Part shown: positions 37,340 through 43,053 of the stretch, piece after piece
How the letters are laid out: each line of letters begins with the position of its first letter
How positions within the stretch are numbered: position 1 is the first letter of the stretch
Source: Escherichia phage ECML-363
DNA length: 64,000 nucleotides
Sequence record: OL631483.1
Strand: one strand, 5' to 3'
Notes under the pieces: generated by a model
Database searches by the model: none
Told to the model about the DNA's origin: nothing
Seen by the model: the letters and a program-made list of their open reading frames with translations, nothing else
Made by a program: the position numbers and the translations under genes

Positions 37340-37556
37340 ATTGTTTTTCCGTTAATACAGTAATATCATAGTAACAATCGGAAGAAGTTTTAACTGTGGA
37401 AATTTTATTATCAAAATACTCACGAGTCATTTTATGAGTATAGTATTTTTTACCATAAATGGTAATAGGCTGTTCTGGTCCTGGAACTTCTAACTCGCTT
37501 GGGTTAGGAAGTGTAAAAAGAACGGCACCAGAAGTATCTTTAAATCGTAAAATCAT
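37293..37556 (-). CDS. Hypothetical protein (nrdA.2 position)
   Basis: 87-aa ORF. Confidence 0.55.
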
Positions 37557-38413
37557 ATTGCCATTTTCCCTTTAATTGCTGGATGCGATTCATAATTTTC
37601 AAGGATAAAATCTTTCGGTTTCATGTATTCAGTTAACCAGTAAAGCTGTGTTTCGGTGTCACAATTTTCAAACTCTATAGGCCAATCAATTTTAAGTTCG
37701 CACAGTTCTTTAGGCTCACGGCGTAAAATTTCTTTACATTGTTCTACGTGATTCATATAGATATGAGTATTACCACCAGAAAATATCAAATCTCCTGGGA
37801 TAAGATTACACATCTTAGCCATAATATGCGTCAAGGCAGCGTACGAGGCAATGTTGAATGGCAAGCCCAAGAAAACATCTACACTTCTTTGGTACCATTG
37901 TAAATCAAGATAACCATTACGCACATTAAACTGATAGAACATATGACAGGGCGGTAATGCCATTTGATTGATTTCAGCTGGATTCCATGCTGAAACGATT
38001 TGACGTCGATCAGTTGGTAATTTTTTAATACGATCAATAGTTTCAACTAATTGATCCACACCACCGAAATCACGCCATTGTTTACCGTATATAGGACCAA
38101 GTTCACCACTATGATATCCTAGGTCTTTAGCTTGGTTTTCATAATTGTCATCCCAGATAGTTTTACCTTGAATAAGACTACCATGAGTAAGAAGACGTAA
38201 ATCATTAACATTGGTAGAACCAGAAATAAACCATAAAAGCTCAGCAATGCATGCATTCCAGGCGAGCTTTTTAGTTGTTACTGCAGGAAAGCCTTTAGTT
38301 AAATCCCAGCGTAATTTAGTACCGAACAAAGCAATTGTTCCTGTGCCTGTTCGGTCATCAGTTTCATAGCCATTTTCAAAAATGTCTTTAATTAAATCTT
38401 GGTATTGTTTCAT
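37553..38413 (-). CDS. td: Thymidylate synthase, uninterrupted
   Basis: 286-aa continuous ORF with TS active-site region ([33 protein letters not shown]). Confidence 0.97.
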
Positions 38414-38458
38414 TTAGTACCTTATATAAATTATAATACATTTTATGAAGCTAAATAA

Positions 38459-38806
38459 TCAATACGGTTTAGCATCAAATTTTCTCTCAATTTCAGGCGT
38501 GAAATATAATTCTTTACCGCGTTTGGAAAAGCGACCAATAATATGATAATTATTCTCATCAGACGTGATATTACCAATATCCATAGCTTTCAACCAAATA
38601 TCGATATTTCTATCCAACTTTATGTCAAAATTCCAATATGGAGAACTATTACCGAAAATACTGCAAGCGGATTCAGTAAAACAACTGCTATAAATCTTGT
38701 CTTTAGGAACTACTAATTGATAGACGCCTTTAATAAACTGAGGACCCTGCCATTTAGGTTGTTTCTCATCTTTTTCTAATAGAATAGGGTAATAATTAAA
38801 ATTCAT
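38459..38806 (-). CDS. Hypothetical protein between frd and td
   Basis: 115-aa ORF MNFNYYPILLEKDEKQPKWQGPQFIKGVYQ...; no motif recognised. Confidence 0.55.
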   Translation of the reverse strand: MNFNYYPILLEKDEKQPKWQGPQFIKGVYQLVVPKDKIYSSCFTESACSIFGNSSPYWNFDIKLDRNIDIWLKAMDIGNITSDENNYHIIGRFSKRGKELYFTPEIERKFDAKPY

Positions 38807-38825
38807 ATTTCCGCCACGCGTTATT

Positions 38826-39651
<826 letters not shown>

Positions 39652-39667
<16 letters not shown>

Positions 39668-40011
39668 TGAAAGGGGCCATAAGCAAATCCGCTATCTTTA
39701 ATCATTTTAATTAACGTTAACATTCCTTTGTTAACTGCTCGTGAGATTTCATCAAAAACTTCATCACTATCACCATAAAGATCGCTAAAAAGTTCTAACA
39801 CGTTCTTCTGAACTTTTAATTTACAACCAACAAATTCGCCTACAGTAAATTCGTTTCCGCCAACTCCAGCGTAAAACGTAATTACACCAGTTAATGGTCT
39901 TTCACTAGAACATAGGTCGTGTGATAAATTAATATAAGCCGTCCCGGGCGCAGTTTTAAGTTGGCAACGAATACTTACTCGAGAAATTCCAGCTACACGA
40001 ATGTCAGACAT
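39652..40011 (-). CDS. Hypothetical protein (frd.2 position)
   Basis: 119-aa ORF. Confidence 0.55.
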
Positions 40012-40021
40012 ATTATTTTCC

Positions 40022-40264
40022 TCAAACAGACTTTTTCACAATTTTCCAATCAGCTTTAAACTGATCAACATCAGAATGATAAATCCAAAATCCTGCGCTT
40101 TCACCATCTTCATAAAGCGGACATCCATCGCATTCATCTTCCCATCCCATATCACGTAAAAGATGTTCAGCTTTTTCAACAAGTTCAGAATCTTTACCGA
40201 TGATATTAAAATACCATTTACCTCTAACTTCCGAATCTTTGATGCTCTGACGTTGTAATCTCAT
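40022..40264 (-). CDS. Hypothetical protein (frd.3 position)
   Basis: 80-aa ORF. Confidence 0.55.
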   Translation of the reverse strand: MRLQRQSIKDSEVRGKWYFNIIGKDSELVEKAEHLLRDMGWEDECDGCPLYEDGESAGFWIYHSDVDQFKADWKIVKKSV

Positions 40265-40322
40265 TTTATTCTCCTCAAGTTGATAAGGCTATAGTATCAT
40301 TACCATAGCCTGTTGTAAACAT

Positions 40323-40583
40323 TTATTTTTGAATTTTATCGAGCCACTTACCAAGCTTAATCATTTCTTTAGTAGCCTTTTCCATACTTCTGAACTTAAC
40401 CAATAGAGGATAGGTATCGACACCCATAACTAAATTGGTTGCAAGACTGTGTTCACCCACAAGCCATAACGAATACGTTTGAATATCGAGTCCGTAATTT
40501 CTGTCTTTATGGACCCGTACACCCATCACTTCAAATTTCTCACTAGCTTTTTCTACCGCATCCAGGAAATCATCTTTAGTCAT
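40323..40583 (-). CDS. Hypothetical protein
   Basis: Probable start at MTKDDFLDAVEK... (~86 aa), just after stop of upstream ORF. Confidence 0.45.
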   Translation of the reverse strand: MTKDDFLDAVEKASEKFEVMGVRVHKDRNYGLDIQTYSLWLVGEHSLATNLVMGVDTYPLLVKFRSMEKATKEMIKLGKWLDKIQK

Positions 40584-40584
40584 A

Positions 40585-40971
40585 TTAGGCCTTAAAAGTT
40601 TTTCGCAAAAGTTCAATGATTTCATCTACATTGTTTTCGTCAACAATACAGTGAATTTTTGTTACGCCAGAAACTATACCTTCATTAGCGGATTGAGGCT
40701 TTTCTAAAGTTACCTCAGTAAAGTATTTGAATTCTTCAGAGTAAATCTCAAAATACGTCTCAAGTGGGCCACCAGCCATGTATTCAGTGCCATCTTCCAT
40801 AGTTACACGTACCACACAGTCACCAGCACAATCATCACTTTCCATTTCATCTACAACAAAACTAGGTCCGTGCTTCTCTATTAAATTTAGCATCATTACA
40901 TTGCAACGGCACTCGTTAGCAAAGTCATTTTTAAATAAAGGGTTAATGATATAAGTTTTTCCAACTTCCAT
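40585..40971 (-). CDS. Hypothetical protein
   Basis: 128-aa ORF MEVGKTYIINPLFKNDFANECRCNVMMLNLIEKHG... Confidence 0.55.
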   Translation of the reverse strand: MEVGKTYIINPLFKNDFANECRCNVMMLNLIEKHGPSFVVDEMESDDCAGDCVVRVTMEDGTEYMAGGPLETYFEIYSEEFKYFTEVTLEKPQSANEGIVSGVTKIHCIVDENNVDEIIELLRKTFKA

Positions 40972-41014
40972 TTTGATTTCCTCATTTTAATAGGGCTTGA
41001 TAGCCCCTTGATAA

Positions 41015-41245
41015 TTATTGTTCAATCAGTCCCATGTAAAATTCTGCGTCTTCAGAATCCATGCCATCACAATATTCATTAGCCATAAAGCGGGTAAGGT
41101 CTTCAAGAGGACCTTCAATGACAATAGAAAAATTGCAATAATTGGGATCATCATGAATACTTGTGATACTAAGTTCAGGATAACGATTACGAATAATCTC
41201 TTCAATATATTCAAAATCAACGATGTCAATATCAACTTTAGCCAT
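41015..41245 (-). CDS. Hypothetical acidic small protein
   Basis: Track ORF reads through promoter and terminator; true start [13 protein letters not shown]... (76 aa) with AAAGAGGAAAATAAT SD. Confidence 0.5.
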
Positions 41246-41288
41246 ATTATTTTCCTCTTTAATCATCAGCAGTATTGCCGATAGTTGT

Positions 41289-41318
41289 ATAGTACCATGG
41301 AAGGACAAGGATGTAAAC
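41289..41318 (-). promoter_or_regulatory. T4-type early promoter (GTTTACA -17 bp- TACTAT)
   Basis: Minus-sense A/T-rich upstream element, then GTTTACATCCTTGTCCTTCCATGGTACTAT. Confidence 0.5.
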
Positions 41319-41350
41319 AGTTTTGTGAAAAAATTTTTGAAATAAAAAAA

Positions 41351-41369
41351 GGGGACCTCTAGGGTCCCC
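41351..41369 (-). terminator. Hairpin terminator after gene 32 (GGGGACC-TCTA-GGGTCCCC)
   Basis: 7-bp GC stem followed (minus sense) by T-run. Confidence 0.65.
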
Positions 41370-41391
41370 AATTAATTAGTAATATAATCTA

Positions 41392-42300
41392 TTAAAGGTC
41401 ATTCAAAAGGTCATCCAGGTCCGTGTCATCAGCACTAGATGAACTGCCAGAGCTTGAGCTCATAAAATCATCTTCAGTTTTTGTTTTGAAGTCATCAACA
41501 TTGAATGCATCCAAATCATCAGCAACTTTATCAGCTTTCTTAGCAGCAGTTGCAGCGGCACCGCCCATCACAGCAGTTCCCATAACTTGACCGAATTTAG
41601 TATTCAGTTCTTCAAACGATTTGAATTTATCTTTAGAAGTCATTTCAGAAAGGTCAACCATTTGTTCGAACAGTTCTTTCTGGAAAGATTCATCATCAAT
41701 GTTTGGAATCGCAGATTGATTCAGGAATTTAGATTCGTCGTAGTTACTAAAACCAGAAACTTGTTTAACTTTCAGTACAAAGTTAGCACCTTCCCACGGA
41801 CAAGTTACATCAACCGGAGTTTCACCCATTTCAACATCAACTGCAATCATTGCGTTGATTTTATCCCAGATTTTCTTACCGAAACGGTATTTAAATACTT
41901 TACCTTCATTTTCTGGAGCAGCCGGGTCTTTTACTACAAGAATGTTAGCCCAGTAAGAAGTTTTACGTTTAACAAGACCGTATTCTTTATTGTCAGTGTT
42001 GTACAAATCATTTTTACTGATGTACTGACATACTGGACAAGAATCGTAATCACCGTGAGTAGATGAACAGTTTTCAATATACCATTTACCATTTTTCTTG
42101 AAACCGTGATTTACAAGAATTGCGAATGGTGCTTGTTCATCATTTTTAGACGGAAGAAAACGAATTACTGCTTGACCGTTACCCGCATTATCGAGTTTCA
42201 GTTTCCACTCGCCTTTATCTTCAGAAGAAAAACCACCTTTATTTCCAGCCAGTTTAGCCATTTGTGCAGCGAGTTCAGCAGTAGATTTACGTTTAAACAT
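41392..42300 (-). CDS. 32: Single-stranded DNA-binding protein gp32
   Basis: 302-aa [55 protein letters not shown]... with acidic Ser/Asp C-terminal tail. Confidence 0.97.
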
Positions 42301-42391
42301 TTTTATTTCCTTTTTAATTTAATTAACAGTTGGTGCTATGACGATGTATGACCTCATAGCTGGTCAGTGAGATAATTATAATCTATTTATA
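42301..42391 (-). promoter_or_regulatory. Gene 32 leader: A/U-rich translational operator region plus upstream late promoter (TATAAATA at 42384-42391)
   Basis: Minus-sense ...TATAAATAG...GACCAGCTATGAGGTCATACATCGTCATAGCACCAACTGTTAATTAAATTAAAAAGGAAATAAAA-ATG. Confidence 0.55.
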
Positions 42392-42399
42392 ATAAGCAA

Positions 42400-43053
42400 T
42401 TAATACTTGCAAGATTTCACAGTTTCAATGAAAACACTTTTAGCTTTCTGTGAATCAATATTTAAAATTTTTCTATAAGCCTTTAACTTTATAGAATAAT
42501 TATTCCAGACTAAATTATCAGTCTGTTCATCATGTTTATCGATTATATTTAAAAACGAATCAAGCAAGATAAACGTCTCAAACGAAATTATATTCGATTG
42601 AAGTAGTTTAAAAATATAACTTGATTGAACTTTTGGATTATACTCAAAGATTTCTTTAAAAGCAGAAACTTCAACTTTTTTACTAAAATAATAGATATTC
42701 CTAATATCTTCTTCAAACTTAAATTTAATTTGCTTTAAGCGTCCGATATATTCACGATAAAACACAAGTGCATCAGCGTCAGAGATGTCACCAATCCAAG
42801 CATCCTGGTTAGCAACCAAATTACTTATAAAGATTAAAGCAAGTTCCTTTAATTTATATTTTTCTGATAACTTCTGGAAAAAATACTTATCCCTTCGCTT
42901 TTGATAAGCGGCATCAGACACCCGCATGCACCAATTATACTTAATAACATCATACTTTCCATTCATATGTTGTTTTATCATTAAGTATAATTTATAAACT
43001 GATTTACCATCAATATATCTTTCACCTCCAGCAGGCATGCGGAGTTTAATCAT
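42400..43053 (-). CDS. 59: Helicase loader gp59
   Basis: 217-aa ORF MIKLRMPAGGERYIDGKSVYKLYLMIKQHMNGKYDVIKYNWCMRVSD... Confidence 0.95.
   Translation of the reverse strand: MIKLRMPAGGERYIDGKSVYKLYLMIKQHMNGKYDVIKYNWCMRVSDAAYQKRRDKYFFQKLSEKYKLKELALIFISNLVANQDAWIGDISDADALVFYREYIGRLKQIKFKFEEDIRNIYYFSKKVEVSAFKEIFEYNPKVQSSYIFKLLQSNIISFETFILLDSFLNIIDKHDEQTDNLVWNNYSIKLKAYRKILNIDSQKAKSVFIETVKSCKY

Follow-up and report, generated by a model that had tools for sequence, protein, structure and literature searches.

The frd.3-frd.2-ORF86 interval downstream of gene 32 in Escherichia phage ECML-363: a predicted early transcription unit with an accessory third gene

What are the three small open reading frames (ORFs) that follow gene 32 in Escherichia phage ECML-363, and how do they relate to the genes found at this place in T4? 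We addressed these questions in a 64,000-nucleotide stretch of sequence record OL631483.1 (the window, to which all unlabelled positions refer). As a preliminary description had it, the three frames lie on the minus strand at 41015-41245 (76 amino acids [aa]; ORF76), 40585-40971 (128 aa; ORF128) and 40323-40583 (86 aa; ORF86). It treated them as an unassigned set predicted to be expressed immediately after infection, with the timing expected of host-takeover or anti-defence factors. We are confident of a more familiar answer, that the interval is an ordinary T-even early transcription unit, frd.3-frd.2-ORF86, located 3' of gene 32 in a “hyperplastic” accessory-gene region. Very probably, an early promoter here called P1 drives immediate-early transcription of all three genes, and ORF86 has been gained or lost by recombination at a repeated promoter/stem-loop element.

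Of the three ORFs, ORF76 and ORF128 are classical genes of T4, and ORF86 is an accessory gene that recurs in public annotations; the earlier labels are corrected to that extent. ORF76 (frd.3) matches Pfam PF05798 (Phage_FRD3) over profile positions 1 to 75 of 75 with 129.6 bits (gathering cut-off, 28.1; E = 6.3e-38), falls in phrog_1764, and is 87% identical to T4 Frd.3 (NP_049853), with flanks that align with T4. Like T4 frd.3, it stands directly after the gene 32 terminator and a promoter, and the promoter and Shine-Dalgarno site are the same; it differs in a replaced 13-residue central patch (residues 29 to 41) and a one-residue insertion. By profile, identity and position, ORF76 is the orthologue of T4 frd.3. 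ORF128 (frd.2) matches Pfam PF03197 (FRD2) with 115.9 bits (gathering cut-off, 29; E = 1.4e-33) and phrog_622 at 9.5e-39. It shares length (128 aa) and position with T4 Frd.2 (NP_049852), and the alignment retains the hydrophobic and glycine pattern of the N-terminal domain. Overall identity is 45%, the C-terminal ∼30 residues being identical and the N-terminal two-thirds representing a divergent allele. On these grounds, ORF128 is the orthologue of T4 frd.2. The absence of a recognizable domain thus holds for ORF86, which has none in Pfam, and not for ORF76 or ORF128. Similarly, orthology to T4 genes, which the preliminary description had named as evidence against its own reading, was found for frd.3 and frd.2 (both named, neither functionally characterized) and not for ORF86, a hypothetical protein in the annotations of hundreds of T-even genomes.

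Megablast of 38400-42400 returned 905 phage records; the best match, at 99% identity, was Shigella phage SfPhi01, many Tequatroviruses matched at 94 to 96%, and the window itself is a Tequatrovirus. All genes at 37.5 to 44.6 kb are on the minus strand and constitute the T-even replication and nucleotide-metabolism cluster, in the order rnh, dsbA, 33, 59, gene 32 (41392-42300), six small ORFs, frd (38826-39410), a 115-aa ORF, and an intron-less td. The plus-strand ORFs of the interval lack a promoter motif, and in T4 every gene of this region is on the minus strand. Between gene 32 and frd, the six ORFs of the window (frd.3, frd.2, ORF86, frd.1, ORF119, ORF85) compare with three in T4, whose annotated order is 32, frd.3, frd.2, frd.1, frd, td. 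The excess over T4 had been recognized before, but it had been assigned to the wrong genes: the extras are ORF86, ORF119 and ORF85 rather than the three ORFs nearest gene 32, and the other three ORFs, previously called frd.x genes, are frd.1 and two non-T4 ORFs (ORF119 and ORF85). The window positions match those annotated in RB51, namely 32, frd.3, frd.2, RB51ncORF239c, frd.1, RB51ncORF237c, RB51ncORF236c, frd, RB32ORF229c, td, with ORF85 resembling RB51ncORF236c only in part. The four non-T4 PHROG numbers are all missing from the T4 per-gene PHROG table of the CRISPRi-ART supplement, which is consistent with their absence from T4.

Is the unit expressed early? The gene 32 stop codon is directly followed by an intrinsic terminator hairpin at 41351-41369 on the minus strand (GGGGACC-CTAGA-GGTCCCC followed by a T-run; −14.6 kcal/mol), identical in T4 and RB51. 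It is followed by an AT-rich, UP-like region (41325-41350) and then by P1 (41289-41318, minus strand), the promoter that had already been noted ahead of the first ORF: G-TTTACA (41317-41312), a 17-nucleotide (nt) spacer with TG before the −10 element, and TACTAT (41294-41289). We place the predicted start at an A near 41282. The 37-nt leader between P1 and the frd.3 ATG carries the Shine-Dalgarno site AAAGAGGA, and the strong ribosome-binding sequence previously reported at this gene, AAAGAGGAAAATAATATG, is indeed present. The −35, −10 and start region of P1 are identical to those of the T4 element at the corresponding place, and P1 also matches the T4/PST promoter-early stem-loop consensus TTTACW-N17-TAYWAT (PMC4122927). 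Across the 64-kb window, the motif GTTTAC[AT]-N16-18-TANN[AT]T has 10 minus-strand copies and no plus-strand copy, against ∼0.48 expected per strand, while a generic sigma-70 scan did not discriminate (21 sites versus 16.7 expected). In T4, the frd.3 mRNA ranks with the NAD-capped RNAs of highest abundance, which are primary transcripts starting with A (bioRxiv 10.1101/2024.04.04.588121), and the Hinton laboratory regards Frd.2 as an early protein (PMC12152347). Because P1 shares its hexamers and start region with T4, the T4 frd.3 RNA is NAD-capped and Frd.2 is early, early expression from P1 in the window phage is a well-founded inference by homology. P1, as a sigma-70-type T4 early promoter right after the gene 32 terminator, would then transcribe frd.3, frd.2 and ORF86.

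The 10 early-promoter motif matches span 24649 to 61960. Several of them (61960, 58321, 41318) share an upstream AAAATTTTTTCACAAAAC(G/T) sequence, which suggests that repeated cassettes of the kind described below may occur elsewhere in the window.

Within the unit, the ORF86 ATG lies 1 nt past the frd.2 stop codon and is preceded by only a weak AAGG. This spacing and the weak Shine-Dalgarno site make it probable that ORF86 is translated by coupling to frd.2. An intercistronic hairpin separates frd.3 from frd.2 (40992-41007, minus strand; GGGGCU-AUCA-AGCCCU; −9.9 kcal/mol, z-score −1.9); the stem is retained in T4, and the RB51 version has another loop and a longer stem (GGGGCTAT-TTG-ATAGCCCC). 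An Rfam scan of 39900-41500 gave a chance match only (E = 0.6).

The unit is followed by a second promoter, P2 (40291-40320, minus strand), with G-TTTACA at 40319-40314, a 17-nt spacer, TACTAT at 40296-40291, and TG before the −10 element. It lies 2 nt past the ORF86 stop and 26 nt ahead of the frd.1 ATG. Both P1 and P2 have the features of T4 early (sigma-70) promoters, i.e., GTTTAC(A/T), a 17-nt spacer, TAnnAT, TG and an A/T-rich UP region. The locus can therefore be described as two units, P1-frd.3-frd.2-ORF86 and P2-frd.1-ORF119-ORF85-frd, the second of which P2, with its embedded hairpin, is predicted to drive. This hairpin has 11 bp (40286-40311, minus strand; −14.7 kcal/mol, z-score −3.1) and lies over the spacer and −10 element; it would be present only in RNA reading through from P1. 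Such hairpins of 10 to 12 bp, embedded in the second early promoter, are conserved in five phages (z-scores −2.3 to −3.8), including T4 (NC_000866; 4599-4643 of L002), JS98 (2771-2798 of L006) and VR7 (3059-3086 of L007). Their arms vary in mutually compensating fashion: GGCUAU/AUAGCC in T4 and RB51, and GGGUA/UACCC and GGUCUAU/AUAGACC in JS98 and VR7, a comparison made on per-sequence folds, as a MAFFT alignment sets the arms out of register between variants. The P2 hairpin, which has no T-run, may be a 3'-end stabilizer, a processing site or a DNA-level recombination structure.

How, then, did ORF86 come to be present here and missing from T4? T4-like phages have promoter-early stem-loops (PeSLs), composite terminator/promoter cassettes clustered in their hyperplastic regions (PMC2839356, PMC4122927), which mediate the insertion, deletion and swapping of small accessory genes as well as mini-circle formation (Arbiol et al. 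2010, PMC2839356; Comeau et al. 2014, PMC4122927). As with such cassettes, the window locus occupies a hyperplastic-region site and adjoins an indel that separates close relatives. Combined with the gene 32 terminator, P1 has all PeSL parts in canonical order, i.e., stem-loop/terminator, AT-rich stretch, early promoter, Shine-Dalgarno site and ATG. Judged by this composition, the combination of terminator and P1 is a canonical PeSL, and P2 is only PeSL-like.

The indel itself is clean. ORF86 is missing from T4 at the corresponding site according to both annotation and alignment, and a three-way DNA alignment of the window, T4 and RB51 places it precisely between the frd.2 stop and P2, with flanks 94 to 98% identical to T4. 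Both states are common, with ∼197 records containing the full T4-type junction and ∼198 containing ORF86 at at least 90% identity; in several records, the promoter part of the T4 junction matches two places. Copies of the P2 element follow frd.2 in T4, ORF86 in JS98 and frd.3 in VR7. JS98 (Dhakavirus) and VR7 (Gaprivervirus) share the gene order 32, frd.2, ORF86, frd.3, frd.1. ORF86 there keeps its 1-nt spacing after frd.2 and the same promoter/hairpin element, but the next gene is frd.3 rather than frd.1. JS98 has P2-type elements before frd.2a and after ORF86, VR7 has one after frd.3, and repeated copies thus bracket cassettes. The repeat is not restricted to noncoding DNA. The sequence ATTCAAAAATAAATGTTTACA (window 40314-40334; JS98, 2750-2770 of L006; VR7, 3036-3056 of L007) comprises the last codons (IQK-stop) and the −35 element for ORF86 in the window and JS98 and for frd.3 in JS98 and VR7. 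Since the same sequence closes the unrelated ORF86 and frd.3, the repeated promoter element extends into coding 3' ends. Some other ORF86 alleles are two residues shorter, at 84 aa, and do not have the terminal QK found both in the window copy and in the repeated junction. The simplest explanation for the presence and absence of ORF86 is PeSL cassette shuffling, by which the extra genes relative to T4 would have arisen, and we infer that the indel had this origin, with recombination at these particular copies.

Several points weigh against this account of the unit. In published PeSLs, the stem-loop is upstream of the promoter, whereas the P2 stem-loop lies inside it, over the spacer and −10 element, and has no T-run. 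Promoter activity and the coupling of ORF86 are both predictions. T4 frd.3, like frd.1, was scored “Not fit” in the T4 CRISPRi-ART screen, and an amber mutation in T4 frd.2 leaves plating efficiency normal (PMC12152347).

In T4, the slot of ORF86 between frd.2 and frd.1 holds an unannotated 22-aa hydrophobic ORF, MFAPYIMAAVMLVCLYLLIKAC (NC_000866; 4516-4584 of L002, minus strand), located 3' of the promoter that comes immediately after frd.2. This ORF has a good Shine-Dalgarno site, GGAG, and overlaps the Shine-Dalgarno site of frd.1 with its stop codon. At 138 nt, the full T4 frd.2/frd.1 junction is found in the ∼197 records mostly at at least 95% identity.

It might be asked whether the interval is only regulatory, with at least one of the three ORFs open by chance. 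Conservation effectively refutes this idea, to which we give next to no credence: the families are matched by hidden Markov models at 1e-33 to 1e-49, homologues number in the hundreds, and Shine-Dalgarno sites are present. For ORF86, the ratio of nonsynonymous to synonymous substitution rates (dN/dS) is 0.04 (0.043 versus JS98 and 0.039 versus VR7), and by this measure ORF86 is a real gene under strong purifying selection. Its product (isoelectric point, 7.95) matches phrog_4423 over the full length (positions 1 to 86 of 86; E = 3.7e-49), and its equivalents RB51ncORF239c, JS98 orf232 and VR7ORF254c, annotated as hypothetical proteins, have 92 to 98% amino acid identity. A motif, KDRNYGLDxQTYSLWLVGEHS, is invariant or nearly so across the family. 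The real product has 86 aa, since every homologue starts at M-T/N-K; a 100-aa version starting at an ATG at 40625, inside frd.2, was rejected as an ORF-calling artifact.

The family extends well beyond the T-evens. By tblastn, ORF86 occurs in 350 phage records, of which the ∼198 at at least 90% identity are T-even relatives. More distant homologues are found in Phapecoctavirus (58 to 64% identity), Vequintavirinae (31 to 35%), the Drexlerviridae (ECH1, 54%; Klebsiella Webervirus, 42%) and the unclassified Pseudomonas phage PsgS01F (51%). ORF86 thus spans the Straboviridae, Stephanstirmvirinae, Vequintavirinae and Drexlerviridae, always amid small early/accessory or hypothetical genes. The family forms 21 clusters at 90% identity in 5.8e9 proteins, and has 12 representatives at 50% in 1.8e9 proteins. 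In the siphoviruses ECH1 (Drexlerviridae; 2956-4537 of L005) and PsgS01F (unclassified; 1956-3535 of L009), the ORF86 homologue leads a short operon and is followed by a gene of the Phage_lipoprotein family (PF24052, shown for ECH1) and a gene for a 320-aa membrane protein; tail genes adjoin.

Given the constant position behind frd.2, it is tempting to see ORF86 as a functional partner of Frd.2 in a translationally coupled module, e.g., an LSm-like RNA-binding protein with its cofactor. The 1-nt spacing is kept in the window, RB51, JS98 and VR7, though frd.3 has moved in the latter two. In addition, the block comprising the Frd.2 C-terminal domain, ORF86 and the promoter has 85% DNA identity between genera, where gene 32, frd.3 and frd.1 are at 71 to 79%, and frd itself is also at 85% versus JS98. 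However, T4 and the ∼197 other records have frd.2 without ORF86, and outside the Tevenvirinae the upstream neighbor is not detectably Frd.2-like (BLASTP E = 0.22; hhalign probability at most 3%). No neighbor is conserved among the homologues. A Frd.2-like upstream partner was sought in phiWec179, phAPEC8 and KpV522 by Pfam, PHROG, BLASTP and hhalign and rejected in each case, and a conserved downstream partner was rejected as well, the downstream proteins having no similarity to one another. Because T4 keeps frd.2 alone and the upstream genes outside the T-evens are unrelated, a partnership would be at most facultative, and we consider it unlikely.

What might the ORF86 protein do? The AlphaFold2 model, with an initial predicted local distance difference test score of 70 that rose to 84.9 with a wider alignment, is a compact alpha-beta-beta-beta-alpha domain (helix 3 to 14; strands 21 to 26, 37 to 42 and 57 to 64; helix 67 to 85). 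The model has no convincing structural or profile relative. Searches of Pfam (21 family members, E ≤ 10), PDB sequences, NCBIfam and PADLOC found nothing for ORF86, and two PADLOC matches to other ORFs (E = 0.007 to 0.02) were weak and treated as chance. Its secondary-structure order is the same as that of a double-stranded-RNA-binding domain (dsRBD), and the last helix opens with a conserved S-x-E-K-A-x-K reminiscent of the SKKxAK motif of dsRBDs; a Foldseek search of BFVD also returned two giant-virus RNase III models at E ∼0.2. A divergent dsRBD acting on phage or host RNA is nonetheless very improbable. An hhalign comparison of the family with eight approximate dsRBD sequences gave a probability of 0.45%, no Pfam dsrm match appeared in the 21 family members even at E ≤ 10, and we rejected this identity as having no significant profile or structural similarity. 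More generally, known small domains of this topology (dsRBD, SRP9/14) differ from ORF86 in giving no significant sequence or structure score against it.

Frd.3 is strongly acidic (isoelectric point, 4.05; 19 acidic and 4 basic residues), and all 10 amino acid differences between the window and T4 proteins are within residues 29 to 41 (41123-41161), with identical sequence on either side. Across the family alignment, both ends are highly conserved, and the variable patch covers roughly residues 24 to 44. Frd.3 is present in 732 phage records, confined to T-even relatives. Fusions that might hint at function were not found (all 37 cluster representatives are single-domain proteins of 50 to 99 aa), nor were relatives in the PDB or NCBIfam. 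For both Frd.3 and ORF86, we looked for a catalytic motif, a cofactor-binding family and relatives among larger proteins, and found none. Each may well be a small non-enzymatic protein that binds some phage or host macromolecule and that the phage can do without in the laboratory.

Variation in Frd.2 is likewise localized. The window and T4 have no blastn similarity across 40675-40956, which encodes the N-terminal domain, while the flanks are 94% and 97.6% identical. Over 884 records, Frd.2 identity is strongly multimodal (at least 90%, 60 to 80%, and below 60%), with the C-terminal ∼30 residues almost invariant. The window allele is in the minority, with ∼90 of the 884 records at at least 80% identity and 663 below 60%. 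A sharp mosaic boundary lies within frd.2, the C-terminal domain being essentially invariant. GoF and MotB.1, together with Frd.2, form a Tevenvirinae family whose N-terminal domains are predicted to be LSm/SH3-like five-stranded barrels, the LSm-like domain being described as a bent five-stranded antiparallel beta-sheet (Kim et al. 2025, PMC12152347). The weak match of ORF128 to the goF PHROG (E = 0.006) is the link expected from this family, and an ankyrin match of Frd.2 (E = 0.001 over 38 residues) was judged compositional. RNA-related activity in the family has been demonstrated with the GoF(D25Y) mutant alone and not with Frd.2 (PMC12152347). By analogy with what is proposed for GoF, Frd.2 may fold into an LSm/SH3-like beta-barrel and act on RNA or some other macromolecule. 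In the CRISPRi-ART screen, frd.2 is the sole T4 gene of unknown function scored “Fit,” marginally (0.83, p = 0.027), and those of its individual guide scores that were available are labelled Not fit.

Could these genes be the host-takeover or anti-defence factors first envisaged? ORF86, and possibly Frd.3, may be such factors, made immediately after infection to neutralize, by direct binding, a host defence system or an essential host protein, and we hold this as a tentative possibility. The genes sit behind an early promoter, ORF86 is patchy, accessory, horizontally spread across phage families and under strong purifying selection, Frd.3 is highly acidic with a localized hypervariable patch, and alleles of Frd.2 differ by replacement of the N-terminal domain. 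In addition, hyperplastic-region genes are thought to be adaptive (PMC4122927). However, ORF86 has no match in PADLOC, Pfam or NCBIfam, and frd.3 has no phenotype in CRISPRi-ART. Comparison with known anti-defence proteins (Acr, Acb and similar) found no sequence or fold similarity. As far as the available part of the report goes, a toxicity screen of early proteins of Mosigvirus AV110 names no frd.x homologue among its hits (bioRxiv 10.64898/2026.09.14.751387). An anti-defence role is compatible with the ordinary early-unit explanation and not exclusive of it. A more specific proposal, which we regard as rather doubtful, is that ORF86 (phrog_4423) is a new small alpha-beta-beta-beta-alpha family, horizontally mobile among at least four virulent enterobacterial phage families, that neutralizes a defence or host factor common to Enterobacteria. 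If that were true, the PeSL-bounded T-even slot would hold interchangeable host-adaptation modules, with the 22-aa hydrophobic peptide as the alternative occupant in T4.

The arrangement of the locus is already known from T-evens and annotated in many genomes, and the mechanism of its variability has been published. As an example of PeSL-type cassette exchange within a hyperplastic region of T-evens, the early unit described here is clean and well bounded. ORF86, strongly constrained and spread across phage families, is a reasonable, not exceptional, candidate for anti-defence or host-interaction screens. The allelic series of Frd.2 N-terminal domains and the frequent downstream partner may also aid work on the GoF/MotB.1/Frd.2 family.

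The genes downstream of P2 continue the mixture of T4 and non-T4 content, all on the minus strand. The first, frd.1 (40022-40264), encodes an 80-aa DUF5417 protein (PF17438 at 2.5e-33) that is 99% identical to T4 Frd.1. It is followed by two non-T4 genes, ORF119 (39652-40011; DUF7247), equivalent to RB51ncORF237c, and ORF85 (ORF85/81; 39410-39655; phrog_3183). ORF85 overlaps both of its neighbors, by ATGA with ORF119 and by TAATG with frd. Elsewhere in the cluster, segG is not present between genes 32 and 59 in the window, and td (37553-38413) is uninterrupted, with no group I intron and no I-TevI. Between frd and td, genes that overlap in T4, the 115-aa ORF is inserted (38459-38806; phrog_1928); it corresponds to RB32ORF229c, which is annotated in RB51 as “flanked by 9 bp repeat.”

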